64,000 bases of DNA from a virus. Under the pieces are notes generated by a model, which saw nothing but the letters and a program-made list of their open reading frames with translations, did not search any database and had not been told where the DNA came from. Below are positions 16,985 through 60,016 of this stretch, one piece after another. The position numbers and the translations under genes are program-made. Location: positions 1 through 64,000 of the IMG/VR virus record IMGVR_UViG_3300034980_000576; one strand, given 5' to 3'. Numbering within the stretch: position 1 is the first letter of the stretch; each line of letters opens with the position of its first letter.

Positions 16985-16996
16985 AGGAAGACATAC

Positions 16997-21527: not shown

Positions 21528-21539
21528 CAAGGAGAAAAC

Positions 21540-22400: not shown

Positions 22401-22408
22401 AAGTTCAG

Positions 22409-28233: not shown

Positions 28234-28236
28234 ACA

Positions 28237-32782: not shown

Positions 32783-32795
32783 AAAGGAGAATAAA

Positions 32796-32966
32796 ATGGC
32801 GACAGTAAAACAACTACAAGAGGAGATTTCAAAACTCCAGAAGAGGATTAGCTCATTTAGCGATGAGGTGTTCACTCTTAAAAACGAATTGAAAAGATTC
32901 AAGACAGATGTTGCATCTGATGTGAGGTATCTCACCGATCGAGTGGACGGCAACAAGAATGGATAA
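32796..32966 (+). CDS. 56-aa coiled-coil protein (MATVKQLQEEISKLQKRIS...), not in ORF track
   Basis: AAGGAG SD; fills the gap. Confidence 0.7.
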   Translation: MATVKQLQEEISKLQKRISSFSDEVFTLKNELKRFKTDVASDVRYLTDRVDGNKNG

Positions 32967-33186
32967 CGAAAACACAACCCCACACAAGCTTTCAAACCAA
33001 GCCTTGGGTGCGGTTATGATGGCGTTACAGGAATCACTTCTGAATGAATTGGATATTGTTCCAATTCTTAGAGGATTCGAGCTATTAGAGAGCGCCGACG
33101 GCTTAGTGGTGACGAACCCGCCCACAGTCAGAGTATCTAACGAACAAAAGATTAGTGAACAAGACTTGATTAACATGGTAAAATAG
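32959..33186 (+). CDS. hypothetical protein
   Basis: ORF track. Confidence 0.7.
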   Translation: MDNENTTPHKLSNQALGAVMMALQESLLNELDIVPILRGFELLESADGLVVTNPPTVRVSNEQKISEQDLINMVK

Positions 33187-33449
33187 TGCCAAAGTACTAT
33201 TATCACTGCCATAATTGTCATAGTAATTTTTTTGTATATCATATGATGTCCGAAGTTCAAGAAGAATGTACTTCTTGTATGCTTCCGGGCGTAAGCAAGT
33301 TGCTGACAAAGCCGTTACATTTCGATAGTAAAGCAAAGAAGGCATTGACTGGCGATATCACTAAGCAGTATATTGAAGACAATAAAAAGCTTCTTGATGA
33401 TATGAAGAAAGAAGTGAAAGAAAAAGCGTATAAAGAAGAGAATTCGTGA
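33186..33449 (+). CDS. FmdB-like zinc-ribbon protein
   Basis: 'MPKYYYHCHNC...CTSC'. Confidence 0.75.
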   Translation: MPKYYYHCHNCHSNFFVYHMMSEVQEECTSCMLPGVSKLLTKPLHFDSKAKKALTGDITKQYIEDNKKLLDDMKKEVKEKAYKEENS

Positions 33450-34258
33450 GTTTAATTAAAAAGATCAGGATAGCCGAACAAAAGGCGTCAAACAATGCCC
33501 TATGGGATCGCAAGCTGGCATTCATACATGTCCCCAAGAATTATGGAACAACAACAGCTGATTTCTTATTTAGGCTTGTGGATAGTGAAAACGGCTATGA
33601 ACCCGGCAAATCCGCGCACACCACAACTCATATGACGGCGCCACAAATAACATCTTTGCCAAAATATGCTAACCATAACACATTCTGTTTCACACGTAAC
33701 CCATATTCTAGATTTGTAAGTGTTGTTAAGTGGCGTACGCCAAAAGATGCTCTTTTGGGTATTTATCAGTCGCCGCATCCCTTCCGCAGCCTTCCGATCG
33801 GAATAGATGATTTTCACACCAGCACCCACAAAGCATTACAATATATTATAGAAAGAAAGGTGCAAGCACCAACGGATTACGAATTTGAGATAGATTCAAA
33901 AAAATTAGATCGCATGTTTTTACCTCAAACCACGTGGCACAATAACACCACGTCTTTGTATCAATGTGAGGATTATTATAATGAATTATGGCGTTTTATG
34001 CAGGAACATAACATAGCCCGCACAAAAAAAGTTAGTCTTGTTGTCCAACATGAAGGTGATTTTTTAGATGCCAATGGCAAACCAGATCCAGCAAATATGA
34101 CTCACAGAAATCAATCAGAAAAAACCATCGACAAGACATCCTACAAAGAAATTTTTTACGATATTTTGAAAAGAGATCCCGGACTGCACAGAGGGTTTAT
34201 AGATTACTACGGCGCCGATTTTTCATTATTTGATTATGAACCGGAGGTTCTATCATGA
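33446..34258 (+). CDS. sulfotransferase family 2 protein
   Basis: 5'-PSB 'FIHVPKNYGTT', 3'-PB 'RNPYSRFVS', 'YGADFSLFDY'. Confidence 0.8.
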   Translation: MSLIKKIRIAEQKASNNALWDRKLAFIHVPKNYGTTTADFLFRLVDSENGYEPGKSAHTTTHMTAPQITSLPKYANHNTFCFTRNPYSRFVSVVKWRTPKDALLGIYQSPHPFRSLPIGIDDFHTSTHKALQYIIERKVQAPTDYEFEIDSKKLDRMFLPQTTWHNNTTSLYQCEDYYNELWRFMQEHNIARTKKVSLVVQHEGDFLDANGKPDPANMTHRNQSEKTIDKTSYKEIFYDILKRDPGLHRGFIDYYGADFSLFDYEPEVLS

Positions 34259-43900: not shown

Positions 43901-45074
43901 AAGTTCTCCGTATCCAAAAATGAAAACAGAAAAAGTATATATTGGTACTGTTCCGGCACTCGGCGAAACTTCCGGTGGTTCCGAATCGCAACCTTATGCC
44001 ATAGAACAGTATGTATCTGTTAATGGAACTAAAATGACGCCATCAACAGCCAAAGCTACAATAACGGCACAGGACACCAACCTGCGAATATCCGATGTTT
44101 ACCCCGGCACTTTACAATTAGTACATAATGACGCCGGCATTGAAGTTGGTATTAAGGGCAATATAGGAGTTCGCTACGGACTTGCTTTTTATTATATGGA
44201 TGGAATGAAGAAACTAATAACTACCGTGGAAGTTGATTCTCTGGATGTCAAAATCGGACAGTGGAATGTTATGCAACCAAGCAGTAAGTTGTTAATGTGT
44301 TTGCTTAATAAACTAAAAGAAGACGAAAGATATAAGCTAATGACAGATTATATTTTCCCACTTAACAAAGTTACTGCGATTTGGGCAATTTATAATGATT
44401 TCGGCATTATGTCATCTTTGGGAGAAGTTACTTGCGGCTCCGGCGATGACACCATGTGGCTTCCAACGGGTGTAGGCGGCGCCCTGCTCGCCTTGGCGGG
44501 CATAGACGCCGGCGATATTGCAAAACCTAGCGATTGGCTTTCCGGAACCCCATTTACTCAAGTTAAGGTTAAGCCCGGCTCACGCGCATATATTCACCGA
44601 GACGTACTCGAAAAAGAATACGCATGGAGTAGTATGTCAGAAGCAATGAAAGACGCACTAATGCCATTCAGGGTTCCATGGTTCGATGATTCCATCGAAT
44701 ATGAAATAATCTCCTTTGATCAAAGCAAAAGCGGAATAACAGGAAATGAAGGCTGGGCGGCATATACTGATCGCGGAGACGCACCATTAGCCGGCTGGTG
44801 GAGAACGACGTGGGACGAGTGGGATCGAAGACTGTTGAGGAATAGCGCTTACCGGATTAAGAAACTGTTTAAGTCTTATTATTATTCGCGCGATTATCGC
44901 CCGGGCGATGACCTCTTAGGCGATAGTGAGTCACCTTCATTCTTATTTTTGAAGAACCTCAAGGCAGCGATGTTCCCTGTTCCCGGCAAGAGTATGTTGC
45001 CATGGTGGCAGCGTGGAAGACTTCGTAGTAGTCCCTTTAATGCTAAGGGTGAAATGTGCAACGGGAAAGACTAA
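37941..45074 (+). CDS. 2377-aa virion/baseplate-associated protein
   Basis: Long ORF immediately upstream of gp25-like gene; N-terminal DxDxDG motif, Cys-rich. Confidence 0.7.
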   Translation: MADSKFLRFQDVDNDGLIDVCDDLITTPETPCKGPCTPNPAAINPQWKNRDINEPFLNEKKCYYQVTKVTPHSTIQTDVDVNFKEFKEEAVDSLLNFYDKDDGFTSKEKVRNAMIFDRYDLDPHPNTRLKLLYSVPFDVIYELPDAVPEDEPFEDDEPGTVKVTFNAAQLTTQIIRVRTGLGMYGRLLKVYRSIGEGNAYYKANRTIFNLDDYGDMGLWSDSIMKQLMNGLEGFLDAKDYRLPGQFWGAFSSDRLVTKLKFVFDDYELKSMRVWTVACGNKPRYFGKKKLRPLRAQGPWKNKTAVAYFTKLPEMARAFNARVQIPWQDFVEKYTYPKVFFDIKEGNTEKTIGSCVADALADEFKELGQDVLDKVFTIGDAIAYLWRKSICRDSINESLADDFLAGTYPGAGTPDMTKAFGMGKEQAFGNLSKDDNVFVMMCMAVAASSSNLGSVSSMMGNMYKFGFQRIKICGLFDLLGSVIQCLTGGLTLDEALSTMLEAALKNMGIEQFGDLFKGLPTHKQRELGAMVEKQLREGSFFSNESVAIEKPWENQAVIDKERENMSEDNFEGMTPTPNSQVEEPKYERTLVEQNDKPQRDTVPVDKIMQAYISALLEYYSENLFELLDELNKFPGAQIIAAIIGSLDCPHPPLLNPSFPDFIKSIIFPFCTSMSEFSLPRLENPLQYYPDFADITAFIWYMAKKIVIMIVWQILMILMAKICELIGNAICKALEVTGAVIGALPGAMAGTADLGQVIKDTICGPEADDKQVEDTILDLMSQLGLGSAAFANRDRTLQFGLDLSSSLTTAELQNALLGNPSPIFLEIVDHLIEYEYPEFREGIQNRNAVGRFFKNIGNLIPIEARAKLEDAANENIWDLGPDGEEGANIVAANPSMCSTPEQIEQFKALRCELLEGRATPEQCHEMFCDMREGTLEDLADLSDILQGGLGNHIVKNMPPLVSEPGCDDGIFPWESPQMAALGVHALSGDLEMLKIDYAKDMMGNGNFWNSDSQWGFMNMMLSDTQAFALTSHHAKTSNEKAYVNYATNLPNGGEATSGFFSFFQSSQGFSGQIGQYPYYVGEWMKRQFLNAGMPSSQRDNFVIKPGFYSLTSMGNDLRASMHGSGYGFRSSNGSTGTKKYYVDFEKLQYNNFFGSLTQGINLFMVPDFGYNTSLRANMNTEQVEVTREIRKGTGIKVNGGDGSHSGKSLYSPAELGCDMVLDFRDNAAGMRLGGKGWIPADDKWDYISTNEGGKPSDWAPGGKWGTEWSYGYEIQCYFNDIHKDETGNTRNRFDDNIRLELVEKVNYGSDHMGPLGKAMEDEMTKMAPFDLPNWIEGIPIVGWAIESVINLILMPFTQLIVRAVKVAALRASEEVHRIREFEFISVDDGLDVFFVEPDPEDTQHPKLSDYPEFARIKNQLTPESPPVLLLSDMTGLSKSEAKARYDSTMNSMFQKLAYEIGDAEDKSGGWLYGADYDYLTQDDTLYGVKTDAGEFVPYYLSGYEEEDMVLGISWDQYMNPKNPRVIYLNPAIYGGSYSKPPLHIKPLQYKGWMGFVQVFFPESTACKPHSVDLVDFGEIESFIQEHFPKMADDPRLTKDPECVREVPFKRIMTRAGKTGMYSLVMAAIRVYASTHLFKAMGTFSQIMPKFPDNFSSIYSSYIVERIEEDFRDAPDGFWGWAQSFKDDEFWYGFLEQSVECYNFLVEAGEIEIPKQGGYLQSAFDTINDLQTEYKFPMRPTQTRNYVNSEGEEKKQRVMGLWDAKIAGEAGWFQSLKGYRSDENFEAIQSVEEHAKLILQQLVNFELTKMGKRLVENMRQYGFNPRIFDLDYYAFTEMNASNSGGGGAPGSVNGPLHFAGPEAVDIIQALPTPDNPDPRGEGVSWPGPYYTKGAEFRVAIDNDSTNEFSYADEYVGYYHGHIDEEGDVIYMVGEQHTGDAQDVLTPVDNLVAVGTEAYIEERVNIDEMMGDSSRSAYEAASDAEAARERQSSPYPKMKTEKVYIGTVPALGETSGGSESQPYAIEQYVSVNGTKMTPSTAKATITAQDTNLRISDVYPGTLQLVHNDAGIEVGIKGNIGVRYGLAFYYMDGMKKLITTVEVDSLDVKIGQWNVMQPSSKLLMCLLNKLKEDERYKLMTDYIFPLNKVTAIWAIYNDFGIMSSLGEVTCGSGDDTMWLPTGVGGALLALAGIDAGDIAKPSDWLSGTPFTQVKVKPGSRAYIHRDVLEKEYAWSSMSEAMKDALMPFRVPWFDDSIEYEIISFDQSKSGITGNEGWAAYTDRGDAPLAGWWRTTWDEWDRRLLRNSAYRIKKLFKSYYYSRDYRPGDDLLGDSESPSFLFLKNLKAAMFPVPGKSMLPWWQRGRLRSSPFNAKGEMCNGKD

Positions 45075-45508: not shown

Positions 45509-47305
45509 ATGGCAGACGAACAGAAAAAAATATTACCAATTGACTATACTAGTCGAGATTTCGAATCAATTAGAAGTGACTTATTGGAGATTGCCGAAAG
45601 GTTATACCCAGACTCTTTCCAAGATTTTAGTGAAGCTTCCTTTGGTTCTCTGATGGTTGATGCCGTTTCTTACATCGGCGATCAGCTATCCTTTTATTTG
45701 GACTACAACGTTAATGAGTCGTTTCTGGATACAGCATATCAATTTAACAATATACTCCGGCATGGCAGAGTGTTGGGTTATAAATATACCGGACGCCCCA
45801 GCACATATGGTAAGGCAGCGCTTTATGTTCTAATTCCCGCCTCGCAAACTGGCTTGGGCCCGGATTCTAAATATTTGCCGATTCTCCGTCGCGGCGCTCA
45901 ATTCACAAGCGAGACAGGGCTTAATTTTTCATTGGTAGAAAATGTAGATTTTTCAAATCCAAAATTTCCCGTGGTTGTCGCCAGGGTAGACGACACTACG
46001 GGCGCCCCCACCTTCTATGCAGTAAAAGCATATGGCACTGTTGTGTCCGGTATAATGACAACAGAAAGAGTGCCTGCTGGGAGCTATGAAAAATTTAAAA
46101 CGATTACCTTAACTACACCGAATGTTTCGGAAATTATATCGGTTTTTGACACCGAAGGCAATGAATATTTTGAGGTAGATTATCTTGCGCAAGATATGGT
46201 ATTTAAAGAAGTAGCAAACAAGAGCTTTAAGCAGGACAATGTTCCTTCAATTCTAAAGCCATTCCTTGTCTCTAGAAAGTTTATGGTGATAAAAAACTCA
46301 TCCAGCACGATGCTTCAATTTGGCAGTGGAAAACACGGTGCTAGCGATGTTGTGGCGAATCCACAAACCGTAGCTATGGATAGTTGGGGAAAAACATACA
46401 CGACAGCGCTTACGTTTGATCCCACGAGATTATCCAACAACCAAAGCTTGGGTATAGTACCTCAAAATACTACCCTAATAGTTACGCTGAGATCAACGAA
46501 CCCCACGAACTCCAACATCGCCACGGGCGAACTGACAGGAGTGGCATCCTCAACGTTAGAGTTTGAAGATAGAACTCAATTATCTGCTGATGTGATTAAC
46601 TCAATCCAAACCAGTCTAGAAGTTTCAAATGAAGAGCCAATCACCGGCGACGTTACAAATCCAAATTCAGCAGAAGTAAAGCAAAGAATTTTTGACACGT
46701 TTCCAACTCAGAATCGCGCCGTTACGCAGGCTGACTATGAAAATATTACATACAGAATGCCGGCAAAATTTGGTTCGGTTAAACGAGTGTCCGCTCAGAG
46801 AGATCCAGATTCACAAAAAAGAAATTTAAATTTATATGTCTTATCAGAAGATAGTTTTGGAAAATTAATAAAAACCAACTCAACTATTAAGAATAATTTA
46901 AAAAAATGGCTGAATGAATATAGAATGATTAATGACACGATTGACATTTTAGATCCGTATATTATTAATCTGGGAATTAACTTTTCCATAAAAACTATTA
47001 ACGGCGCCGACAAGTTCGCAACCTTAAATCGATGTGTGACAAAATTAGCTAATTTTTATGAAAGTGGCTTTTTCATCGGAGAATCCATGACAATTAGTGA
47101 TATATACCAACAACTCAAGAATGTTGCGGGAGTGTTAGATGTGGTAAATGTTACAATTATAGGCAGAACCGGCGCCAACTATTCAGGATCAAACATAGAA
47201 ATAAATAAAAGCCTCTCGCCGGATGGAGATCAACTCTTGTGCCCAAAAAATGCAATTTTTGAGATTAAGTACCCAACCGCAGACATAAAAGGTAAGGTTA
47301 AATAA
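45509..47305 (+). CDS. baseplate wedge protein, T4 gp6 / baseplate J-like
   Basis: 'YTSRDFESI', 'NESFLDTA', 'LGYK', 'QNRAVTQADY'. Confidence 0.9.
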   Translation: MADEQKKILPIDYTSRDFESIRSDLLEIAERLYPDSFQDFSEASFGSLMVDAVSYIGDQLSFYLDYNVNESFLDTAYQFNNILRHGRVLGYKYTGRPSTYGKAALYVLIPASQTGLGPDSKYLPILRRGAQFTSETGLNFSLVENVDFSNPKFPVVVARVDDTTGAPTFYAVKAYGTVVSGIMTTERVPAGSYEKFKTITLTTPNVSEIISVFDTEGNEYFEVDYLAQDMVFKEVANKSFKQDNVPSILKPFLVSRKFMVIKNSSSTMLQFGSGKHGASDVVANPQTVAMDSWGKTYTTALTFDPTRLSNNQSLGIVPQNTTLIVTLRSTNPTNSNIATGELTGVASSTLEFEDRTQLSADVINSIQTSLEVSNEEPITGDVTNPNSAEVKQRIFDTFPTQNRAVTQADYENITYRMPAKFGSVKRVSAQRDPDSQKRNLNLYVLSEDSFGKLIKTNSTIKNNLKKWLNEYRMINDTIDILDPYIINLGINFSIKTINGADKFATLNRCVTKLANFYESGFFIGESMTISDIYQQLKNVAGVLDVVNVTIIGRTGANYSGSNIEINKSLSPDGDQLLCPKNAIFEIKYPTADIKGKVK

Positions 47306-48849
47306 TGTCTATCAAAAGATATAGAGCAGACATGGACAATACGATTGTTAATGCTTATCAATCGAACTTATCTACACGCGGCACTGGCTCAAATTCAGGA
47401 CAAGCAGATGTGGTAGAAGTGTACTCTGTTTTCGGAAGACAGCAAGCTAGCAGTTCTGCTGCAACCGGCTCACAAGAACTATCCAGAATTCTAATGAGGT
47501 TTCCGATTAGTGACATTTCGGCAGATCGAACAGCGAACAGCATCCCAGCTAACGGCAAAGTCAGCTTCTATCTTCGACTGTTTGATGCAAAGACATCAAA
47601 GACGGTTCCTAAAAACTATAAGCTTGTAGTTCAAGCAGTTTCCAGATCTTGGGAAGAAGGCGACGGCTTAGATTTAGAAAACTATACTGATTTAACTAAA
47701 AATGGTTCTGGTTCAAATTGGATCCGAGCTAGCAAAGCCTCGGCATGGTCGAGTGTTGGTGGAGATTATCACGCGTCTCCAACATATGTTCAGTATTTCA
47801 CGGGCGGCTTGGGAAACTTAGATGTTGATATCACGGCTCTTGTCGAGCAATGGATTGCCGGCTCGAAGAGTAATTATGGTGTTGGTGTACGCTTAACAGC
47901 CAGCAATGAAGCTTATTTTTCAAGTTCTGCCGGCGTAGATTCTGGAAGCGTTATTCAAAACCCCAATGGAGCCAAGACGTCTTACTACACAAAGCGCTTT
48001 TTCGCCAGAGGTTCGCAATACTTCTTTAAACGCCCGGTGATTGAAGCAAGGTGGGATTCCACCACGCAGGACGATCGTGCAGCATTTTACTTTAGCAGTT
48101 CGCTAGCAACGAAGTCAGAAAACTTAAACACACTTTATTTGTACAACTATGCCAGAGGAAAGCTCAGAAACATCCCGGCGGTAGGTACGGGGCATATCTA
48201 CGTTAGTCTCTATTCGGGCTCTTCTGACAACACCGCACCAAGCGGTTCCAAGCTCGTTTTATATGATGCCGAAACCGCAATGACTGGAGGCCATCATGAT
48301 ACGGGAATTTACACGTGCTCTATCGCTCTTACGAAATCAACTTCTGTTACTTTAGAAACCCTTTACGATGTGTGGCACGATAATTCGGGAACAGAGTTCT
48401 TCACCGGCTCAATTAAGCCTTATACTCTCCGCGGCTCAACACACGCGAGAGAACCAACATACTACCTCTCGATAACAAATTTACAGAATTCATATATGAG
48501 AGATCAGAACGCTCGCTTTAATTTATATGTTCGAGAGAAGAATTGGAGCCCCACCATCTACACCAAAGCGATCGCCAGCGCCCCAACGGAAACCATCTAC
48601 AGTGCATCTTATAGAGTTATTAGGACAATAGATGGACTTGAGGCGGTTCCTTTCTACACGGGCTCAAGTAATAAACATGCTACAGGATTATCATATGATG
48701 TCTCGGGTAATTATTTTGATTTAGATATGAGCTTGTTAGAGCCGGGATATGAATATGCATTTAAATTTGCATTTTATGACGATGAGCTTGGTTCGTGGCA
48801 AGAGCAAAATGAACAATTTAAATTCCGAGTAGACGATTATGAGCATTAA
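47305..48849 (+). CDS. virion structural protein (DNRLRE-like beta domain), [S/T]GS-rich
   Basis: 'SRILMRF', 'WEEGDG', 'DVDITALVEQWI..NYG'; in the baseplate module. Confidence 0.65.
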   Translation: MSIKRYRADMDNTIVNAYQSNLSTRGTGSNSGQADVVEVYSVFGRQQASSSAATGSQELSRILMRFPISDISADRTANSIPANGKVSFYLRLFDAKTSKTVPKNYKLVVQAVSRSWEEGDGLDLENYTDLTKNGSGSNWIRASKASAWSSVGGDYHASPTYVQYFTGGLGNLDVDITALVEQWIAGSKSNYGVGVRLTASNEAYFSSSAGVDSGSVIQNPNGAKTSYYTKRFFARGSQYFFKRPVIEARWDSTTQDDRAAFYFSSSLATKSENLNTLYLYNYARGKLRNIPAVGTGHIYVSLYSGSSDNTAPSGSKLVLYDAETAMTGGHHDTGIYTCSIALTKSTSVTLETLYDVWHDNSGTEFFTGSIKPYTLRGSTHAREPTYYLSITNLQNSYMRDQNARFNLYVREKNWSPTIYTKAIASAPTETIYSASYRVIRTIDGLEAVPFYTGSSNKHATGLSYDVSGNYFDLDMSLLEPGYEYAFKFAFYDDELGSWQEQNEQFKFRVDDYEH

Positions 48850-51800
48850 AAAACTATTTGAAGACGCAAATAAGACAGACACTTTCGTAGCAGACACCAG
48901 CCAGAAAGATGCATTCGAGCCTGTAGAATCGCAAAGGAATGTTGAACAGAAGTTACGCTCTCAAGCGCGCTATGTACCACAAGTAGACTACTCTGATCCT
49001 ACAAATTTTGTTAAGTATGGATCTGCGCGCTTATACTATGAGTCTGCATTCAATAGAATTCTAGATTATTATCCTTATGACGGCTCTCAGGCTGAAATAA
49101 CAAAATTTCACAATAACAATCTAGACATCGAAGAATATATCTTAGACAAGAGATATCCCAAATCTACTGGATACATTACTCTCGCAAAAGATGGTTATTC
49201 AGTTAGCTCCATAGTTGATGGCTATGGCGTTCCAACTACTAATGAGTATATTGACTTAAAGGGCGGTCCAGGAACGGGCTCAGCGCCCTCCCTGCTACTG
49301 CAAAAGTTATTACCAAATCCCTACAACGACAGCTATAAATCATCTAATCTTTATAGTTCAAACATCTACACTGATGCCGGCCTTCCTTCAGATTATGGAA
49401 AAGGCTCTCGACAGTCAAACCTACGCGCCAACTTTGATGATGGTGTTACTGTAGAATTTTGGATGAAGACGGGTTCGATGGTTCCCGGCGCTATTACGGA
49501 TCGTCAAGTAATTTTTGATTCGTGGAACAATAATGCCGTTTCATCAGCAGATTATGGAAGGCTCATGATAGAGCTTACAGGCACCGTAAACGACTTTGGT
49601 GGAGACAAAAATCCCTTTGTTATAACTGTCCAATCCGGGGCAAACCCCCCACGATCGGTGGGATCAATGAAACTTCTTGGTGCTGACTCCCTACACGAGA
49701 CGATGGGAGACTGGAATCACTACGCCATTCGTTTATATAATACAGGCTCCTCGGGGAAAATACTCAAAACAGAACTGTATGTTAATGGTTTCCGATCGGA
49801 TTCTTCATCTTGGGCGCCCTATTCTTTAAAAACTAAGTTGGAAGTACAGCGAACCCTTGGATCAGCCCACTCATACCACATTGCCGACGGACAATATCGA
49901 TATACATCCTCCGGAAGCCTTCAAGGCTGGTGGCGTTTTGATAAATCCACGATTACAACCACTTCTCCAGAGCCAGATGCCAGTGGAAACAACCATACTG
50001 GTTCGATATCTGCCACAGCACATGCGCCAGCCACCTCCACCTCCACCCCTAGTGCATATGTCCAAACTACAGGCTCCAACGTTTGGGGCGGAGATGCTAC
50101 CGATGCAGTCAGAATAGGCACCGCCGCCACATGGGATGCCATAATTGGAAACAACACTGGATCTGCAACTCCCAGGATGCCCCGCACAACCGAGATGATG
50201 ACGTTCGCAGCATGGGTTTATAAAACCGGCGATGGTGGTGGAAGCCCGGGCAAAGGCAGAATATTTGATTTTGGCAATCAGGATATAGCACTGTATTCGA
50301 ATACCTCCGAAGCGTTGCTCTTTAATACAAAGTGGAATGGAAACAATATAGTCCAATGGACTTCAGCAACTGGTGTATTTTCTTTGAATACGTGGACTCA
50401 TATAGCTATAACATATGACGCGAGAAGCGCAGAGAACAGACCGAAGCTATATATAAACGGCACCCTGACGGCGATGCCTTTAAGTACCGGAACTCAAACC
50501 GGCGCCTACTATGGTATCGCCGGCCAAGAGTGCGTTATAGGAAACAACGCCGCCGGCAATCGCAACTGGGCAGGAAATCTTGCAGATTTTGCAATCTGGA
50601 ATTCTATATTAGACGCAGAGGAGATCCAGACTCTTTATTATGCCGGACAATACACGCAAGCGTTTGACGGCATAACAGAACTAAATTCTAAAAACATGAT
50701 TGCTAGAATTGGCGCCCTTGTCACCTCTCCCGTTAGTTCTTCGGCGCCAGCAGGCGCCGGAAGATTAAGCGGCTCGTTGGATGAATTTAGATATTGGAAG
50801 GCAGCACGCACACCTAAACAAATTGGAGAGTACTGGTTTGATCAGGTAAGGGGCGGCGCAAATTCTGACATAGCGAACGCAGATTTAGGAGTTTACTATA
50901 AATTTAATGAAGGAATCACAACCAACACAGCAATCGACAGCATTGTGTTAGACTATGCCGGCAGAGCAGTTAACGGCGTATGGACAGGGTACAGTACAAC
51001 CTCACGAAACACAGGCTCTGCGATCGTATCTGCTTCTGCCGCAGCCTTCGAGTTCGAAGATCCCATTATAAGAAGCACTCACCCATCGGTGGTAAGTCTT
51101 AAGAGCGAGTTAATAACATCGGGAACGTCATACGATTATAACAATAATGCATCGCTAATGTCCTTGATGCCCGGATGGATTCAGGACGAAGCAGCAGACT
51201 CCGACAATTCAGATCTATATTATATCAACCACATTGCTGGCACCTATTTTGACAAAATACATCTACAGATTTCTCAACTGCCCGCTCTTCGACATATAAA
51301 TTATGTAAGCTCTTCTCACAAGCCCTTACCTTTTTCTAAACACCTGCCGCAATCCTTGGGACTATATGCTCCAGAAATGTTTATCGAATCAGATGTGCTA
51401 GAAACATTTGCTGATCGAGACTCTACTACCTTATTTGAGAATAAACTCGATGAGACAAAGAATTTAATTTATCAAAATCTTTATAATAACCTTGCTCATA
51501 TCTTTAAGAGCAAGGGCACAGAACGAGCAATGCGAAGCGTTTTAAGATGCTTCAATGTTGACAACGGGTTGTATAACGTTAGTATTAATTCCAACAACGA
51601 AGAATATGTGCTAAGAAATAACTTAAAGCACTCGCTGCTCAGAAAGAATTTTCTTAACTTTGCTAACCTGGAGAATACCACAGGTGTAGTATATCAACGT
51701 AAAACCGGCTCGAGCACCGCCGAGCAAGGATCAATTAGAGGACACAGTATTTATGTCCACCCAGATTGGATGCAGGCTAAGTACGGATTTACTTGTGAGT

Positions 51801-54800
51801 CTAATATCATATTTCCAGCTTATGTTTCAGATTATACTACATTTGTACGAGATTCAAATTTCAACCGTGTGCACTTGTTTGGATTAGAACAAGTTGAAAA
51901 CCGCAATGCAGCCAGCATAACCGGCTCTGATACCACATATACACCAGGCAGAGAAGCCTCATTTAGAGTATATGCTGTACGGGAAAGTATAGGATCAAGG
52001 AATGTATATTTCCACTTGACATCCTCTCGAACTGACGGATTGGGAATAAGTCTTACAAGCAGCGTCTTTTTAAATGTTTATGATAATGAGCCGTGGAATC
52101 TTTCTATAAGAGTTGAGCCTCAAAATTTACTCCAAGCAGGCGTTATCAACCGCGGCACATCGACACCTCTGTATAATGTTATATTTGCCGGCTTTAATCC
52201 AAAAACAGCTAATGAAATAGACTCCTTCAAAGTAAGCGCCTCGGTGTCTGACACAGTAGGGCAGCAATTTATTACGGGATCTCGACGTCTTCTCGTAGGT
52301 GCCGATCGCACTAACATAACTGGGGATCTCAACTATCGAAGTGATGTACAGGTTGCCTCGCTAACATATTGGACAAAGGCACTTCACGACGATGATTTAA
52401 AAACGCACGCAGTTGATTTTGAAAATATAGGAATATCCGGATCTCTGCAGACGATATCCCCATTCGAGAGCGGTTCTGTCGATAGCATCAACAGGTATGC
52501 CCTAGCTCTTAATTGGAATTTTGAGAATGTCACCGGCTCCGGCGCCGGCGGCGATTTTATCGCACAAGACTATTCATCTGGATCTGCTGCCTTAATTAAT
52601 GGTGACTTCGGTTGGAATGGTAAATTGGCAGGATATCGATATCCAGGATTTGCAATGCATTTCCCCACATCATCAACAGGTGTAACTACCAAGAAAGAGA
52701 TTAATACATATAAATTTATCAACCCAGAACAAGTCGTCGCGTCAGACTTGGTTCAGACGTTTTCGGATGAAGATATTCTCTACCCTAACTTAAGAAAAGA
52801 AGAAATTGTTCCCAATTATGTCTTTTCAATTGAAAAGAGCATCTACAATGCGGTCACAGAACAAATGTTGGACTTCTTTGCCGGCGCAATTGACTTCCAT
52901 AGTTTAATCGGAGATCCTGTCCACACTTATAGAGGTCGCTACAAGGAACTGGAAAAACTGAGAGGAATATTTTTTGAGCGCGTCAAGAGCGTTTCTAATG
53001 TAGAAAAGTTCCTTTCGTATTATAAATGGTTCGATGAATCTATCACCACGATACTGTCACAATTAGTCCCGGCATCTTCTGAGTTCGTTGACAACTTGTT
53101 GAATGTTGTTGAAAGTCATGTTTTGGAAAGAAACAAATATCAAAATCGAGTAAACATTATTGATTCTAATACTTTTTGGCTTGAAACTGATATGACGAGC
53201 GCCCCCACCACCGCAGGGATTACAGTCGGTGGCGGCGCCGGCGCACTTGTTTCTCCGCCGGCATCTCCTCGCCCCACAAATAAAGGTGTACAGTACTGGC
53301 AAACCCGCGCCGAAAGAGATATAGCCGAGATTTCATCCGGCGATGCAACCATCGATGCACAGAGAGACACTTTCCGTAATGTTATATGGTCGCGTCCACA
53401 CGTATCCGGCGCGCTCCCTAGGTTGTTTACTGATGCCGGCACAGCATATCTTCCCGGATCCTTCGCGCGCAATAATAGTAGCATGCTGCCCAATATTAGA
53501 GCGCAGATTGACAATACTAATAATCAAATATACAAATGGGAAAGGCCATCTATTACGCAAAATGAAATAAAAGGCGGCACAAACTTTAACAAGGGTAAGA
53601 GTTTAGAATATGCATATTCAGCCGTTTATCCCGGAGGCCCCGTAAACACAGATGATGGTGTTTTTGTTCCCCAAAATGTCCTGATAGGATTTGTAGGAGA
53701 GGCAATTGAGTTAACGAATTACGAGAACATTTCTTGGCCAGAAGATTTGGTTCGAACCAGACAGAAGACATTCAAAGTTCAACACGGTCGCGAGTGGGAA
53801 GATGGAATAGGATATAAAAATACTAAATCAGAATTTGCATTTCCGTTTAACGTGCTAAGCAGCAGCGTTGAGGTACGCTCCGGTTATAATAAAGAAGTTG
53901 TTGATCAGGTGGGAAGAAACATAGAGATAACAAACCTACACAACGACGCATATGGAGATCTGCTTGAGGTACCAATGCAGGGCCCATTTACAGAAGAATT
54001 AGTCGGCGGTCATCAGTCGCGACATGTACCGCTTAATACTGGTACTGATACCCCCTACAATCGTCCTGAAGCATGGCGCCTACTGCTCGGTACGTGCAAT
54101 ATACTGCCATCGGGTGCGATCGGACTCGTCGGCCCTGACTATCCTCCCGTAGATTTTAATCCATCTCCCGGAACAAATCCCGATCTTGTTTACCCCTATC
54201 CCAACTACGAGAAAGCATATCTGTATCGCGACTTCGTGGCAAAAAGCCCCGTTAACATCAAAAATATTAAGGCAGTAAACTCAACTAATACAAATACCGT
54301 GATGGGCAATTATATACGAAAATATGAAATTGTGTATTCCTTTGGTGCTTATAATAACCCTCGCGCATTTGTTGAAACTCAGCCAACGTTGCCATCGCAG
54401 CTATCACTAGTGAACTATACAACAAATGTCCGGACAATTTTAGATATACATCGCGGAGAACAGGATCACTTTGAATTCGTCGGAGATTATAGCACTTCAT
54501 ATCTCACAGGGGCAACTAATAAGTCAATTATTACAACAAGATTCTCTGCCCCCGGCGGTATAGAAGCGGAAACAAGAGGTTACCAAGACTTTAAGGCAGC
54601 TGAATATTCTCCATACAATGTACTCACGTACCGCAACCTGTCAGTCAAAAAGCCTTCACAGGGTCCATCTGGTACCCTTTCTGAGCCCCCCGGAGGCACC
54701 CCATCTACATCAAGAGTATACGATATTCACGGGCTAGACTACGGGCTTAACTCCCACAGGGCACGTTATGCTGCTCGCTTTGGTAGGGATTCCTTACACG

Positions 54801-57800
54801 TAACATCTTCGGGTAATCTCCCCGGAGCATCGTATGATCAATTGCCGGCAATGTTCAAGACAAACCGCAACCCTAAAGAAAGCAACACTATAATATATTC
54901 CTTCACTCAGAGCAGCATACCCGACACGGGACTGATAAATGATAAAACAATAGATATCGATACCGGCGGAACTGGCATAATAGCTGTTATTCAAGACGCA
55001 ACCAAGCGCACCGAAAGAGTTTTTGATGCCACATATGCACTGAGCAATGAAAATTCAGTAATGTTCACTTATGGCTGCTGGATAAAGCCCGACGCCGGCG
55101 GAATGAAACTTTTTGAGTTAGGATTCGCGGGCACCAGCGCGAAGCCAATTCACCAACTACAGAAGCAATCTGGCGGAGAATTAAGGTATACATTTGATAC
55201 GACGGATGGTGCTGGAAACTTTACATCCGGATATTATCAGACAAGTGGCACACCTATAACTGGCTCACTGTGGAAGCAGGCTATGATAACAGTCAGCGGC
55301 GCCCACGGCGTGTTGCCCTCAACTGGACCCACTGTTAAATTTTATGTAAACGGCGTAGAGTACGCCAGTACTTATTCCGGCGCCACCGGCCGGGCATATT
55401 TCCCAACTAGCTCACAAAATGTATCTAATTTTAGAGGATATGGAGCCGCGCTTACAAAGCCTGTAGCGTTTTTTGGTAGAATCGATTCCATAAGTGGATA
55501 TGAGTACACCGGTCAAGCAGATGAAATGTCGCTGCATAATACGGTGCTTTCAGCAGCAGACGTCGACGTTCTCTACAATAGCGGATATCCGCAAAATCTT
55601 ACACAATCGGCAATAGCCGGCAGTTCTAGTCTCTTGTCTTGGTGGCGAATGGGCGACTCGCCCAGTGATGACATGTCTGGAGAAGGTTTAAACGCCATAT
55701 CACCACTCAGTGCGTCAGGTGGAAATGTGATAATAGATGTAAAAAACAGTGCGAATATTCATTTTACTGCTCAGTCAGGAAATCTTTTGAAAGCAGAAAC
55801 AGGCTCAGCGTCTTCGCTCCCGGGACAGCCGCCGTCTACCTATTCAGAAGAATACATCAGTGGTTATGGAAGCAAAAAAGAATATGACAACTACAATATT
55901 CAACATCAAATTCCGAGATCAGATAGACAATATATGTGGATATCTAATTCCGTTGTCGATGTATCAAACATCAGATATGCCGGCTATCAATATACGAATG
56001 CCGGCATCAACAATCCGGACAATTTCCAACGGGAGCCATATAGAACTTCTTCGGCAGGCTTAACGCCATACTGGGATTTTGTCAGCAGTTCGAATGCGAG
56101 TACGGGAAGCTTCTATCAGCCCACAAATAGGTTGAATATCGTAATTAATGATCCTGTAGACTTTACTAACAATACGATAGGTACGACAACAATTGAAGAT
56201 TATATGAATTATGATTTAATCGACAGTAGCTCCACCGCCGGCACACGATTGCCAAACTATCTCAACCAACTCCTTGCATCCCGCGGCAGCAATTATGGTT
56301 GGGGATGGAACAGAACGCGACAAGCAGATAATAGAATCATCTTGAACCAGAAGGCAACCAACACGCTTAGGATGGTTACAGATAGGGCTCGTATGCTGTC
56401 GGCTAGTTATAGATTGCCCCCCCTTTCTATGAAAGGCAGAACAGCGTTGGTGAATTATGATCAGAAAAGTGCCCTTGGGAGAGATGTTAATATATCTTTG
56501 AGAATTTCCAATACTAACAACAACATCTTTTTTCCAGAGCTTGATTTGAATAATTACGCAGCAATCAATTACAATGCAGTCTATAATCCCTTGCAAAAAG
56601 TGCTCTCTGTTGTTCGCAAAGGCTCTACAGGAACCCCGCTTAATTGGGTATTATATTCTCAAAATATCTTCCCATCTATTAGAAACGAATTTGTTAGCTC
56701 CTCATCTAAGAGGCTTAATTTTGATAATGGATACTGGCGCGCTAGCAATGCGGAAAGGATAACCCTCGGAAATACAGAAGAGAATTCTTTCGGCGTGAAC
56801 CTCAGTCAAAGTAGTTGGGTGTTGGACGTGGCAGAAAACTTTTTGACGAGATCGGCGGTGGTGACTGCCTCAACTGGCGACAATCGCTTCTATAACCTCC
56901 GCCAAACTAAAGCAGGAGAACTACAAAACACTTACTATAAATATTTCACAGTCCCCCCAAACTTCACCCGGATAAGTGCAGTCTACGCCAGAACGCACGA
57001 ATTGGATACAATGGCTTCGGTTGTCTCCCCGCAAGGCCCAGTGGTGCCACAGACAGGTTCCGGAGGAAAGTCAGGCTCCGCCGGATCCGGACACTTTCAA
57101 AGAGGCTCAGCATCGTTTGAAACAGCAGCGCTCTTAAATCAGCCATTTGGAGGCGAAGCGGTGTGGGAGGCAGGCTCCCAAGCCGGCACAGTCACGAAAA
57201 CCGCAGCAGGGCTAACATTTACGTCAGCACCTTCAGAACCTTGGTTCGGAACTTACGACTTATTCAATGAGAATATAAAGCTTAAAGCAAAGGGTTTTTC
57301 GGTTGTCCCGGAATATAGAATGAGCGAACATGTTTCGAATTACTACAAGTATGGATACATGAATAAGACAGTTTCTGATATGTTTGAAATACCAGGAACC
57401 ATTTTCGATAGTTCAACGGGATCTTTCTATAAGGATTTCTCAAATACTGACTTCCTTGAGGGATTCTTAGGAGTAAAAGCACAAACGCTGCTAAGTGCAT
57501 CAGAGATTAGAATCTCGTGCACCGGCGCAATAAAATACAACCCGTACGAAGGATTTTACCCAGCGCAAAGAACACAGCAGCTTGTTGCTCAATTTAGTTC
57601 TTCTTTCATGAACTATTTCGGCGTTAAAGAATACGGCGCTGCGCCATGGTTTCCATCGAGTGTTGGATCCAGCTACTTTAACAGTAAAGTTGCGGGCATT
57701 ATGAAAAATCTTACCGATTGCGTCTTTTCGCCCGGCATTCTATACAACTCTATTAAGTCTGGAATCGCTGTCGATTATCCAGTTATTCACGATGCATCTA

Positions 57801-60016
57801 AAAGAGCTACCGGCTCCTTTGGAGGGAGCGTCCTCACCACAAACAACTATGCTCTTGTGATTACTGGCTCTGTCGCCGCGGCTTCCGAACAAACAACGGG
57901 ATACCATGGCGGAGAGATCTGGGATCGAAGAATACCCTTCGAAGCCATTGTTGATCCAAACAGACACCTCCCGGGACATCAATATTATTCGATGGAAAGT
58001 CACCCCTCCATGAGTCTAGGCGCCACTTTCAGCACGTACGAAAATGCGTACGCATTCCTGCAAGAAGGGGGAGACGATATATACTCACTCATGGCTTCAA
58101 ACTTCTTTGGACAATCGACGGCTTTTTTCTTAAAGAATTCAGACTTAACAAAACTTAAATCAAAAACAGTTACGGATGATTTGAAATTTAGACCAAATGA
58201 AGTATATGTATCACGAATTAAGCTTCGGCGTTCCGTCAATGGAACGCGCACCTACGACTGGGAATATGACGCTTCCAGCCAACCAGCATCGGTTGGCGGC
58301 ACTCCGGTATCCTCCATCGCCAACGCAAGCAGTGCGTGGGCAACATTCGGAGCAAAAGTCATCTCAAGCGGCTCGGGGTATTCCCTATACGATAGTGTTT
58401 TTCCAGTCCCGCAGGATCCAAAGAGGAATCCATATTTCCATGAAACCTTTACAATGTATTCTCGTCCAACTGCATTCGGCCCCTCCTGCGCTGGACGCCC
58501 ATCGGGCTCCCGCGCCGTTAGTGGTGCCTTTGAGCACGCTTCCTTTGATAGCTTTGAGGGGTATAATTCCGCCTTTACTCCACCATATACCAATGGCGAA
58601 GCCTGGGTTGACTTAATTTTCCGCCCCTCTGCTAGTATTAGTTACGATCTTGAGAGGATCCTGGCAGAAACTAAGGCAGTTAGTTGGCGATTTGATGCAG
58701 GCTATAGAGTCCTTCCCCCCACCGCTCTCACTGCTTCTGAACCAGCAATGCCGGCACTTATTCCGGTTGAAAAACAAGTCCACAATGGCGGCTCAACAAT
58801 AACCCCAGGCAGCGATAAAACAACCCCCTCGATCTATGATGGATATAGAATCAACGTCAACTCAATGCAAGCTACATCTAGTCTAGACATTTTTGGAGTT
58901 GAGCGTGTTTTGGAACAGAAGACAGGGAAGTTCGATACCATCGGAGAGTCAACTAACAAATCTGTCGGCAAAAAATGGGTAATCTCTCCCAAGTGGGAGT
59001 CCCCCATGCTGAACTTTAACGACAAGGGTGTTCATCCAATTAGCACCGCTGCCGGCACCTTAACGCTGCCAGTATACGCTTCAGCCTCTGTCTCTCGGGG
59101 CATGTGGCATCAATTCGGTGTAATACCAAACGATCAGAACACAGGTGTATTCATGGAGATCGACACTATTCCAGAAGAATGGATTAAGAATCATTATGAT
59201 GTAACAATCAACCCAAGTGCTTACAACAACAATAATCCCGGTGATAATCATGATTCCAGAGGACTCTATAAACGCGTGAAGTCTTTAGCAACGTTGTGTG
59301 GATTTGATAAGACTAACTCTTCGAAGCGATTAGGTGAACTTAAAGAAAAGATGACGGTCAAAGAAGCTGTCGTTGCGGTACCATACGTGATCGATGCCTT
59401 GGATGAGTTCGAATTGGCACAGGTTCCCGCATCGTCTCCGCAAAAGAGACAGCGCAAAAGATTTGTAACAATTCCACAGGCACGCTTCGATGCCGCCCTG
59501 AAAGAATTAGAAGGTTCCGCAACTGGCGATTCCATGGCAACTGCCGGCGCCTCAATTAGAAAATTAGCAAAAGCCGTAGAAACATATGTGTTTCCTCCAC
59601 AATTCGATTTTCTTAATAATCCCGATATTTCACCAATGGCGATGTACGTGTTTGAATTCTCTTACGAGTTTGACAAGGATGCATTATCATATATTTGGCA
59701 AAACTTGGCGCCAATAGATTACAAGAAGCTGGAATTCCAAGCAGCATCAATCGCTCACAATTTAGGAAATAATGAAATCTTAAATGAACAAATCTTGATG
59801 AATAAGAATTTACGATGGATGGTTTTCAAAGTCAAACAAAGAGCCACCCAAAATTATTACGAACTTCTCCCCGATCAAGCAGGTGCCTCGACTGATCAGA
59901 TTGATTTTAAAACTGGCAAACTTGGAGAATATAATTTTGGATTCAACTGGCCATATGATTACTTATCTTTTGTAGAGCTAATTAAGATGGACGTTGATAT
60001 ATTACTTAAAAAGTAA
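48839..60016 (+). CDS. 3725-aa virion protein with LamG/concanavalin-like domains (tail/baseplate fibre-like), [S/T]GS-rich
   Basis: 'TVEFWMK', 'WNHYA', 'WTHIAITYD...LYING...DFAIWN', 'LDEFRYW'; 'IFKSKGT' tail-protein-like motif. Confidence 0.8.
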   Translation: MSIKKLFEDANKTDTFVADTSQKDAFEPVESQRNVEQKLRSQARYVPQVDYSDPTNFVKYGSARLYYESAFNRILDYYPYDGSQAEITKFHNNNLDIEEYILDKRYPKSTGYITLAKDGYSVSSIVDGYGVPTTNEYIDLKGGPGTGSAPSLLLQKLLPNPYNDSYKSSNLYSSNIYTDAGLPSDYGKGSRQSNLRANFDDGVTVEFWMKTGSMVPGAITDRQVIFDSWNNNAVSSADYGRLMIELTGTVNDFGGDKNPFVITVQSGANPPRSVGSMKLLGADSLHETMGDWNHYAIRLYNTGSSGKILKTELYVNGFRSDSSSWAPYSLKTKLEVQRTLGSAHSYHIADGQYRYTSSGSLQGWWRFDKSTITTTSPEPDASGNNHTGSISATAHAPATSTSTPSAYVQTTGSNVWGGDATDAVRIGTAATWDAIIGNNTGSATPRMPRTTEMMTFAAWVYKTGDGGGSPGKGRIFDFGNQDIALYSNTSEALLFNTKWNGNNIVQWTSATGVFSLNTWTHIAITYDARSAENRPKLYINGTLTAMPLSTGTQTGAYYGIAGQECVIGNNAAGNRNWAGNLADFAIWNSILDAEEIQTLYYAGQYTQAFDGITELNSKNMIARIGALVTSPVSSSAPAGAGRLSGSLDEFRYWKAARTPKQIGEYWFDQVRGGANSDIANADLGVYYKFNEGITTNTAIDSIVLDYAGRAVNGVWTGYSTTSRNTGSAIVSASAAAFEFEDPIIRSTHPSVVSLKSELITSGTSYDYNNNASLMSLMPGWIQDEAADSDNSDLYYINHIAGTYFDKIHLQISQLPALRHINYVSSSHKPLPFSKHLPQSLGLYAPEMFIESDVLETFADRDSTTLFENKLDETKNLIYQNLYNNLAHIFKSKGTERAMRSVLRCFNVDNGLYNVSINSNNEEYVLRNNLKHSLLRKNFLNFANLENTTGVVYQRKTGSSTAEQGSIRGHSIYVHPDWMQAKYGFTCESNIIFPAYVSDYTTFVRDSNFNRVHLFGLEQVENRNAASITGSDTTYTPGREASFRVYAVRESIGSRNVYFHLTSSRTDGLGISLTSSVFLNVYDNEPWNLSIRVEPQNLLQAGVINRGTSTPLYNVIFAGFNPKTANEIDSFKVSASVSDTVGQQFITGSRRLLVGADRTNITGDLNYRSDVQVASLTYWTKALHDDDLKTHAVDFENIGISGSLQTISPFESGSVDSINRYALALNWNFENVTGSGAGGDFIAQDYSSGSAALINGDFGWNGKLAGYRYPGFAMHFPTSSTGVTTKKEINTYKFINPEQVVASDLVQTFSDEDILYPNLRKEEIVPNYVFSIEKSIYNAVTEQMLDFFAGAIDFHSLIGDPVHTYRGRYKELEKLRGIFFERVKSVSNVEKFLSYYKWFDESITTILSQLVPASSEFVDNLLNVVESHVLERNKYQNRVNIIDSNTFWLETDMTSAPTTAGITVGGGAGALVSPPASPRPTNKGVQYWQTRAERDIAEISSGDATIDAQRDTFRNVIWSRPHVSGALPRLFTDAGTAYLPGSFARNNSSMLPNIRAQIDNTNNQIYKWERPSITQNEIKGGTNFNKGKSLEYAYSAVYPGGPVNTDDGVFVPQNVLIGFVGEAIELTNYENISWPEDLVRTRQKTFKVQHGREWEDGIGYKNTKSEFAFPFNVLSSSVEVRSGYNKEVVDQVGRNIEITNLHNDAYGDLLEVPMQGPFTEELVGGHQSRHVPLNTGTDTPYNRPEAWRLLLGTCNILPSGAIGLVGPDYPPVDFNPSPGTNPDLVYPYPNYEKAYLYRDFVAKSPVNIKNIKAVNSTNTNTVMGNYIRKYEIVYSFGAYNNPRAFVETQPTLPSQLSLVNYTTNVRTILDIHRGEQDHFEFVGDYSTSYLTGATNKSIITTRFSAPGGIEAETRGYQDFKAAEYSPYNVLTYRNLSVKKPSQGPSGTLSEPPGGTPSTSRVYDIHGLDYGLNSHRARYAARFGRDSLHVTSSGNLPGASYDQLPAMFKTNRNPKESNTIIYSFTQSSIPDTGLINDKTIDIDTGGTGIIAVIQDATKRTERVFDATYALSNENSVMFTYGCWIKPDAGGMKLFELGFAGTSAKPIHQLQKQSGGELRYTFDTTDGAGNFTSGYYQTSGTPITGSLWKQAMITVSGAHGVLPSTGPTVKFYVNGVEYASTYSGATGRAYFPTSSQNVSNFRGYGAALTKPVAFFGRIDSISGYEYTGQADEMSLHNTVLSAADVDVLYNSGYPQNLTQSAIAGSSSLLSWWRMGDSPSDDMSGEGLNAISPLSASGGNVIIDVKNSANIHFTAQSGNLLKAETGSASSLPGQPPSTYSEEYISGYGSKKEYDNYNIQHQIPRSDRQYMWISNSVVDVSNIRYAGYQYTNAGINNPDNFQREPYRTSSAGLTPYWDFVSSSNASTGSFYQPTNRLNIVINDPVDFTNNTIGTTTIEDYMNYDLIDSSSTAGTRLPNYLNQLLASRGSNYGWGWNRTRQADNRIILNQKATNTLRMVTDRARMLSASYRLPPLSMKGRTALVNYDQKSALGRDVNISLRISNTNNNIFFPELDLNNYAAINYNAVYNPLQKVLSVVRKGSTGTPLNWVLYSQNIFPSIRNEFVSSSSKRLNFDNGYWRASNAERITLGNTEENSFGVNLSQSSWVLDVAENFLTRSAVVTASTGDNRFYNLRQTKAGELQNTYYKYFTVPPNFTRISAVYARTHELDTMASVVSPQGPVVPQTGSGGKSGSAGSGHFQRGSASFETAALLNQPFGGEAVWEAGSQAGTVTKTAAGLTFTSAPSEPWFGTYDLFNENIKLKAKGFSVVPEYRMSEHVSNYYKYGYMNKTVSDMFEIPGTIFDSSTGSFYKDFSNTDFLEGFLGVKAQTLLSASEIRISCTGAIKYNPYEGFYPAQRTQQLVAQFSSSFMNYFGVKEYGAAPWFPSSVGSSYFNSKVAGIMKNLTDCVFSPGILYNSIKSGIAVDYPVIHDASKRATGSFGGSVLTTNNYALVITGSVAAASEQTTGYHGGEIWDRRIPFEAIVDPNRHLPGHQYYSMESHPSMSLGATFSTYENAYAFLQEGGDDIYSLMASNFFGQSTAFFLKNSDLTKLKSKTVTDDLKFRPNEVYVSRIKLRRSVNGTRTYDWEYDASSQPASVGGTPVSSIANASSAWATFGAKVISSGSGYSLYDSVFPVPQDPKRNPYFHETFTMYSRPTAFGPSCAGRPSGSRAVSGAFEHASFDSFEGYNSAFTPPYTNGEAWVDLIFRPSASISYDLERILAETKAVSWRFDAGYRVLPPTALTASEPAMPALIPVEKQVHNGGSTITPGSDKTTPSIYDGYRINVNSMQATSSLDIFGVERVLEQKTGKFDTIGESTNKSVGKKWVISPKWESPMLNFNDKGVHPISTAAGTLTLPVYASASVSRGMWHQFGVIPNDQNTGVFMEIDTIPEEWIKNHYDVTINPSAYNNNNPGDNHDSRGLYKRVKSLATLCGFDKTNSSKRLGELKEKMTVKEAVVAVPYVIDALDEFELAQVPASSPQKRQRKRFVTIPQARFDAALKELEGSATGDSMATAGASIRKLAKAVETYVFPPQFDFLNNPDISPMAMYVFEFSYEFDKDALSYIWQNLAPIDYKKLEFQAASIAHNLGNNEILNEQILMNKNLRWMVFKVKQRATQNYYELLPDQAGASTDQIDFKTGKLGEYNFGFNWPYDYLSFVELIKMDVDILLKK

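Follow-up and report, generated by a model that had tools for sequence, protein, structure and literature searches.

Two tail proteins encoded in a 64-kb stretch of viral DNA, p514 and p3725, carry a large excess of the tripeptide [S/T]-G-S. This stretch, called the window in the following, is the first part of a single 99,321-bp viral contig (IMG/VR record IMGVR_UViG_3300034980_000576) from an uncultured marine phage, the source phage, and its genes lie on the + strand throughout. Its wider form, [S/T]-[G>A,S]-[S>A,T], is an ordered short linear motif under selection in distal tail and baseplate-periphery proteins of a large aquatic myovirus clade. It is a candidate O-glycosylation acceptor site (sequon) on these proteins, a reading given a probability of about 0.4. 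The proteins concerned are as follows; two of them are encoded on the same contig beyond the window.

47305-48849, + strand: p514 (514 amino acids, aa), directly 3' of the gp6-like wedge gene, no family match; [ST]GS at residues 27, 54, 135, 213, 304, 313, 367 and 452
48839-60016, + strand: p3725 (3725 aa), giant distal tail protein in which nothing was recognised apart from two Laminin_G_3 domains near the N-terminus
45509-47305, + strand: gp6-like baseplate wedge subunit (598 aa), PHROG 219, 6 and 10646 baseplate wedge
37941-45074, + strand: 2377-aa virion protein, negative control for the motif
contig 72655-73707, beyond the window: p350, motif-rich tail protein (p350 and p427 together are L001:8655-10992)
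contig 73709-74992, beyond the window and adjoining p350: p427, motif-rich tail protein

The identity of the wedge gene places the motif proteins at the baseplate periphery.

An ordered and conserved tripeptide in tail proteins

p514 was found to contain 8 [ST]GS against 1.0 expected (z 7.5), and 13 sites once SAS, TAS and SSS are added. p3725 contains 26 against 5.3 expected (z 9.2), and 55 sites for the wider pattern [ST][GAS]S. The 2377-aa virion protein serves as an internal negative control, with no [ST]GS (1.5 expected) though it has 16 x-G-S, and the wedge protein is motif-poor (1 against 0.55 expected). Shuffling within blocks of 20, 40 and 100 aa, which keeps local composition, gave expected counts of 1.0-1.2 for p514 and 5.8-6.4 for p3725, and the observed counts were reached in 0 of 2000 shuffles. 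Among the tripeptides of p3725, TGS has the highest rank (18 against 2.3, Poisson 6e-11), and its count also exceeds the 6.9 expected from dipeptides. In this protein the enrichment was observed only for the full ordered tripeptide: G-S after residues other than S or T occurs 21 times against about 25, and [ST]G before residues other than S occurs 53 times against about 48.

Counted by frame, ACNGGNTC occurs 17/0/3 times on the coding strand and 0/3/0 times on the other. The signal is frame-specific and therefore lies at the protein level, and a DNA-level repeat as the source of the excess is thereby ruled out. A sequence-only reading of the window had reported the excess from hand counts, had taken the varied codons to mean that no DNA repeat was involved, and had named a comparison with shuffled sequences, protein by protein, as the check. 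Its counts were reproduced exactly in every case by program, the codons do vary, with a mild preference for GGC, and the excess in p514 and p3725 stands after the shuffles.

The nature of the motif was examined further in 51 aligned p3725-family cores, for which the ratios of observed to expected counts are:

[ST]GS: 5.4
[ST]AS: 3.6
[ST]SS: 3.0
[ST]GA: 2.3
[ST]GT: 1.9
[ST]GD: 1.25
[ST]GN: 0.84
[ST]NS: 0.48
G-S after residue classes other than S/T: 0.28-0.85 ([VIL]GS 0.65, [FYW]GS 0.41, [DE]GS 0.31, [KR]GS 0.28)
permuted orders: 1.6-1.8

A composition or generic beta-turn artefact, by which S/T/G richness or a preference for G-S in tight turns would account for the excess, has something to recommend it in that the motif proteins are S- and T-rich (S 10-12.5%) and all-beta. 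However, the whole-protein, local-block and dipeptide nulls all fall below the observed counts, and only the full ordered tripeptide is enriched ([ST]GN, [ST]GD and [VIL]GS were graded as at or below expectation, [ST]GD at the ratio listed above). Nor was the generic type II' beta-turn expectation borne out, in which any strand residue would precede G and N, D, S and T would follow it alike. Since only the ordered pattern is enriched, composition and the usual G-[NDST] tight-turn preference are ruled out; these were two of the outcomes that the sequence-only reading had named as possible refutations, and an artefact is now very improbable. Twenty head, tail, baseplate and fibre proteins of T4, likewise S/T-rich, showed no excess (8 [ST]GS against 12.3 expected), so the excess is no generic trait of myovirus tails.

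Across all open reading frames (ORFs) of the contig, [ST]GS was found to be enriched in four proteins only, p514, p3725, p350 (5 against 0.63 expected) and p427 (5 against 0.54), an excess of roughly five- to ninefold. These account for 44 of the 51 occurrences on the contig in 17% of its residues (4 of about 69 ORFs). The remaining 65 or so ORFs are at or below expectation, other large virion proteins included, and those of 2377, 1373, 1014 and 493 aa lack the motif. The rest of the proteome has 7 occurrences against 14.1 (ratio 0.50, p 0.03), but the T4 structural proteins reach 0.65, and no avoidance of the motif is claimed. Paralogy of the four motif proteins was ruled out, as only p350 and p427 share weak C-terminal similarity.

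The motif is maintained in relatives. p514 has more than 5000 relatives in public metagenomes, mostly marine, and 107 homologs at 59-88% identity contain on average 7.8 [ST]GS against 1.0 expected. Site 304 is kept in 106 of these homologs and site 452 in 100, with T and S swapping at position 1; in the family, position 1 never loses its hydroxyl, being invariant at T27, T367 and T452 and nearly so at S304. At position 3, A or T is tolerated at some sites, such as site 27 (TGS 65, TGA 42). Sixty p3725 homologs showed a median observed/expected ratio of 4.8 (range 2.7-6.7). In the p3725 core (600-2050), site 1247 is kept in 50/50 sequences, site 644 in 42/50 and site 725 in 40/50, and sites 956, 1028, 1146 and 1211 were seen in the source phage alone. 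In eight columns of the core, 50% or more of the sequences have the motif, and in 87 columns fewer than 20% do; these sporadic sites by themselves amount to 1.74 times expectation, against 0.3-0.85 for control patterns. The motif sites turn over while their density is held.

The nearest cultured phages are Microcystis phage Mel-JY01 and Flavobacterium phage immuto, whose wedge proteins are 28-31% identical to that of the source phage. Their proteins downstream of the wedge gene show the same excess (for example 11 against 1.4, 9 against 0.6 and 26 against 5.9). The p350-type domain recurs in both, with several [ST][GSA]S sites in shared columns at about 30% identity, and these shared sites also belong to the consensus of an environmental family with 41 members. 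The tail-module ORFs of 80 diverse IMG/VR loci, located via this domain, have a median observed/expected ratio of 4.9, with 71 of 74 above 3. At least 581 stretches of the domain family are present in IMG/VR, and a collection of 50,697 phage records has it in Mel-JY01, immuto, LR756508 and RM378 only. As a separate observation, the family members share a conserved C-terminal block, YITTVGLY..N.LLAVAKLSKP.

The glycan cluster and its distribution

The glycan cluster that the sequence-only reading had placed upstream of the virion genes is real: three GT4 glycosyltransferase (GT) genes and a sugar island occupy 16997-34258, directly upstream of the tail genes.

16997-18280, + strand: GT4a, GT4 (PF00534, 46.7 bits), intact E-x7-E; core gene of the whole deep lineage
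18229-19518, + strand: GT4b, GT4 (PF00534, 30.3 bits), intact E-x7-E; always adjoins GT4a and occurs only in the motif-rich clade
19515-21527, + strand: GT4c (670 aa), at the start of the variable island; without an ortholog in relatives, where it only cross-matches GT4b
21540-26612, + strand: nonulosonic-acid synthesis block by Pfam (NeuB1, SDR, TIM-barrel, SDR, cupin, CMP-sugar cytidylyltransferase, NeuB2)
26612-27376, + strand: u254, GT42/Maf-like nonulosonic-acid transferase by family profile, adjoining NeuB2
29028-34258, + strand: decorating enzymes (methyltransferase, pyruvyl transferase, PhyH dioxygenase, FkbM methyltransferase, sulfotransferase)

The catalytic E-x7-E of GT4b has the form GEGFGLPLFEA in all orthologs. 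The two NeuB genes score 231 and 259 bits and lie, with CTP_transf_3, directly upstream of u254. As a single sequence, u254 reaches 14.8 bits to PF01973, below the 34.6-bit cut-off, and its family profile matches the CstII/CstI sialyltransferases at E about 5e-6 (CstII 5.5e-6); of 33 family members, 27 match PF01973 (best E 4.4e-6) and five match PF06002. u254 sits in the variable island and so cannot be the conserved motif reader; it may cap the glycan and not act on protein directly. No support was found for u285 and u277 as Maf-like proteins.

Pfam scans of 13.8-35.3 kb detected none of the Wzx, Wzy, initiating phosphoglycosyltransferase and oligosaccharyltransferase families. This lack of detected lipid-carrier machinery suggests direct stepwise cytoplasmic glycosylation of an acceptor, and in its predicted functions the cluster resembles a cytoplasmic, carrier-free glycosylation system.

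Three further ORFs in and around the cluster were recorded. The last one of the island (33446-34258) is carbohydrate sulfotransferase-like (PF03567, E 5e-9), which implies a sulfated glycan. Just upstream of the cluster lies a PIN-PhoH fusion (PF13638 and PF02562) at 13848-15185. A 232-aa ORF at 15482-16180 shows a weak match to PF07737, the anthrax lethal factor N/C-terminal domain (E 1.8e-5, 25 bits, cut-off 27.4), and is 55-64% identical in three relatives.

In five complete relatives (187-203 kb), the arrangement PDDEXK-GT4a-GT4b is kept in 5/5, with GT4a 66-70% and GT4b 56-64% identical, and GT4a and GT4b are adjacent also in a complete 274-kb relative, Mel-JY01 and immuto. The region between this arrangement and the tail genes (16214-34258 in the window) is hypervariable, with a gene content that differs per complete genome and is always glycan-related. 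One relative's island contains GT2, GT11, GT6, a GT29-like gene, GDP-mannose dehydratase and GlmS, and another's contains two PF01973 Maf-like proteins, GDP-mannose dehydratase, a nucleotidyltransferase and a RuBisCO-like protein. The last of these resembles the RuBisCO large subunit (PF00016, E 1.4e-34; L106:15716-16900) and lies beside the nucleotidyltransferase, an odd place for such a protein.

Among the 50,697 phage records, GT4a was found in exactly seven, namely the records with a p350-type domain (Mel-JY01, four immuto records, LR756508 and RM378), and GT4b in Mel-JY01 and immuto only. The motif is scarce in the phages with GT4a only, which counts in favour of a sequon: a single ORF of LR756508 has 3 sites and the others about none, and RM378 has no significant ORF. 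The L112 lineage, related to LR756508 and placed in the same GT4a-only group, is motif-poor too, judged by its tail module. In the complete 274-kb relative and in one fragment with GT4a, GT4b is adjacent, and both are motif-rich. In a quick tree of wedge proteins rooted with T4 gp6, the motif-rich phages form one clade (SH-aLRT 99), with LR756508 and L112 outside it. Fragmentary IMG/VR records carry GT4a/b in only 2 of 24 cases, and since the GT genes lie at contig edges, nothing can be concluded from a fragment that lacks them; assembly breaks probably fall at the variable islands. GT4b in cellular genomes was considered as an independent context and set aside, as 28 of 28 matches are contigs of metagenome-assembled genomes with incongruent taxonomy and none is from an isolate. 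On a separate point, the Rhodothermus phage RM378, which has GT4a and lacks GT4b, carries a UDP-galactopyranose mutase-like gene beside its tail genes (L111:17986-19137).

Acceptor site or structural element

If the motif is a sequon, the tail proteins would be O-glycosylated in the cytoplasm before assembly. GT4a and GT4b would prime the position-1 hydroxyl of the motif, and the strain-variable island would then extend and decorate the glycan; that of the source phage would supply a nonulosonic (sialic-like) acid that is decorated with methyl, pyruvyl and sulfate groups. We infer from sequence all three elements of this proposal, namely the acceptor role of the motif, the protein as the target of GT4a/GT4b and the identity of the modified residue. 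Five points are counted for a sequon and still leave it short of even odds: the ordered, hydroxyl-preserving motif, its restriction to host-facing proteins, site turnover at held density, the GT pair beside a carrier-free island, and the GtfA/GtfB precedent. The complete proposal is put forward tentatively and may well not hold: a conserved GT4 pair would read [S/T]-G-S and O-glycosylate host-facing tail proteins of a very large, globally abundant aquatic myovirus clade, and the hypervariable adjoining island would provide a different glycan per strain, here a decorated sialic-like acid.

Several observations weigh against sugar attachment. GT4a and GT4b are generic GT4 by sequence, and nothing links either to a protein acceptor. 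Because the motif-rich phages are a single clade, the association between GT4b and the motif amounts to one evolutionary event: the gain of GT4b and the expansion of the motif fall on one branch, and the association, though consistent, lacks phylogenetic independence. LR756508 and RM378 both lack GT4b and yet have two SGS columns of the p350 domain, and a 248-kb contig with a divergent GT4b is weakly enriched (ratio 1.6-2.3). At about 30% identity, many sites occupy fixed homologous positions, and some lie inside predicted beta-strands, which fits a structural role equally well, and a central glycine is a typical structural constraint. The immuto tail fibre/spike proteins (L004:34638-38448) contain tandem F-[ST]GS-F-[ST]GS-F-xGDGSGLTGI units; these have a period of 4 residues and resemble a shaft repeat. 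Finally, the motif was not found in the capsid, sheath and tube candidates, a difference from the mycobacteriophage precedent.

The sequence-only reading had envisaged a virion-wide glycan shield, with the motif as acceptor for the upstream cluster, and had asked for the co-occurrence of enrichment and GT clusters across phages. The shield is not borne out, as the motif is present only on four distal tail/baseplate proteins and is missing from the capsid and sheath candidates. Of the acceptor claim, the selected, conserved motif and the cluster itself stand, and the link between the two is circumstantial. Co-occurrence across phages agrees with the claim but carries the weight of that one event, and SGS columns are present in phages without GT4b.

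The AlphaFold2 (AF2) model of p514, built from a 66-sequence alignment (predicted local distance difference test, pLDDT, 77.8; predicted template modelling score, pTM, 0.74), is an all-beta chain of beta-sandwich domains, and Foldseek matched it to Ig/MG/CBM-like multi-domain proteins and to the lambda tail tip. Of the eight [ST]GS sites in this model, four lie in loops, two in strands (27 and 367) and two at strand ends, without a common secondary structure; the sequence-only reading had expected surface loops. A position of p514 sites beside flexible loops was not significant (two of four low-confidence segments, p 0.28). The AF2 model of p350 (41 sequences) reached a pLDDT of only 54 and was left out of mapping and fold search; its low confidence probably reflects an obligate multimer.

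A purely structural role is nearly as likely as sugar attachment. Hydrophobic-[ST]-G-S-hydrophobic would then be a lineage-specific structural or assembly element of beta-rich, probably trimeric tail proteins, in which small residues allow close packing of strands or subunits or hydroxyls cap strands, and the GT cluster would act on something else (the host surface, a different virion component or DNA). Sites in shared columns of both orthologs and paralogs, as part of the family consensus, are expected of such an element, as are the SGS columns retained without GT4b, the immuto tandem units next to GDGSGLTGI, the two p514 sites inside predicted strands, and the hydrophobic flanks in immuto (73% at -1, 65% at +1) and Mel-JY01 (56% at -1). 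In the source phage, however, the flanks are weakly hydrophobic (36% and 43% against a 31% background). The p514 model sites share no single secondary-structure context, there is no enrichment of the turn-favouring G-N and G-D or of G-S preceded by other strand residues, the motif is missing from further large virion proteins of the source phage and from the T4 baseplate and fibres, and many lineage-specific sites stand at new positions above expectation. As for DNA as the alternative target, no TS-family hydroxymethylase was found in the five complete relatives, so classical DNA glycosylation would be without its usual substrate pathway; a TET/JBP search of the same genomes gave no match, but it did not recover its own control and has little weight.

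A third reading, in which the motif is modified in a different way (by phosphorylation, acylation or cross-linking) or acts as a recurrent binding element for a ligand or ion in host recognition, is improbable. A conserved hydroxyl with small residues on host-facing proteins would suit any hydroxyl-directed chemistry, and the island also encodes methyl-, pyruvyl- and sulfotransferases. These decorating enzymes, however, belong to the variable island and lack conservation; neither a kinase nor an acyltransferase was found to be conserved with the motif, and no binding-site fold was recognised.

Comparison with known systems

To our knowledge, mycobacteriophages are the only phages whose own enzymes have been shown to glycosylate the virion, and an acceptor sequon is not known from any phage. 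No report was found in the literature of the motif, of virions bearing nonulosonic acids made by a phage, or of virion glycosylation in the source lineage. If the acceptor reading is true, phage glycobiology could be predicted from sequence by means of a tripeptide on receptor-facing tail proteins, a conserved enzyme pair and a variable sugar island. Consequences would follow for host recognition, for resistance to proteases and grazers, and for the question of why assemblies break at the islands. Phage tail fibres, and not only host surfaces, would be diversified by glycans, adding a new layer to the biology of host range and defence evasion. Should its role be structural, the motif would nonetheless be a signature, not described before, of a widespread family of tail proteins. 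The readings can be tested directly, as two members of the clade, immuto and Mel-JY01, are in culture.

Chlorovirus capsid glycosylation shares with the proposal the concept of virus-encoded, host-independent protein glycosylation, and the few PDB matches of GT4a and GT4b include the chlorovirus glycosyltransferase B736L (3oy2). However, these B736L matches are weak (E 9e-6 and 1e-3), and another linkage and other sequons are described for chloroviruses. The island can be compared with flagellin O-glycosylation with nonulosonic acids by Maf (PF01973) and with the GT42 enzymes CstI/CstII: NeuB, a CMP-activating enzyme and the Maf/GT42-like u254 occur together in the source phage, and one relative's island has two PF01973 proteins. 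Unlike Maf, u254 taken alone is below the Pfam cut-off, is about 250 aa long and lacks flagellin-binding domains.

According to the summary in PMC12619734 of the work of Freeman et al. 2023 (Cell Host Microbe), mycobacteriophages of the Che8 type carry glycans at the C-termini of capsid and tail-tube subunits; the proposal is that glycosyltransferases encoded by the phage modify its structural proteins in the cytoplasm. Such an arrangement would be alike in the source phage, as would the position of GT genes near structural genes, here directly upstream of the tail genes. The candidate sites differ, being a dispersed tripeptide on distal tail proteins only, and so does the lineage, which has a GT4 pair, a hypervariable island and aquatic Gram-negative hosts.

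In the serine-rich-repeat adhesins of Gram-positive bacteria, the conserved glycosyltransferase pair GtfA/GtfB primes alternating serines, and additional glycosyltransferases vary (PMC6973325). GT4a and GT4b are without DUF1975 and without a TIGR02918/TIGR02919 match in Pfam and NCBIfam, with Pfam finding only Glycos_transf_1-type matches, and GT4c reaches only 14 bits against the GtfA/GtfB NCBIfam models, whose cut-off is 575 bits. GT4b keeps the catalytic E-x7-E and so is no GtfB-like non-catalytic chaperone, and the sites of the source phage are dispersed in folded domains without long tandem repeats. What the source lineage has in common with GtfA/GtfB is a conserved adjacent GT-B pair with variable additional glycosyltransferases downstream, and, on the acceptor reading, the two would also share acceptor serines one small residue apart and a cytoplasmic, carrier-free process.

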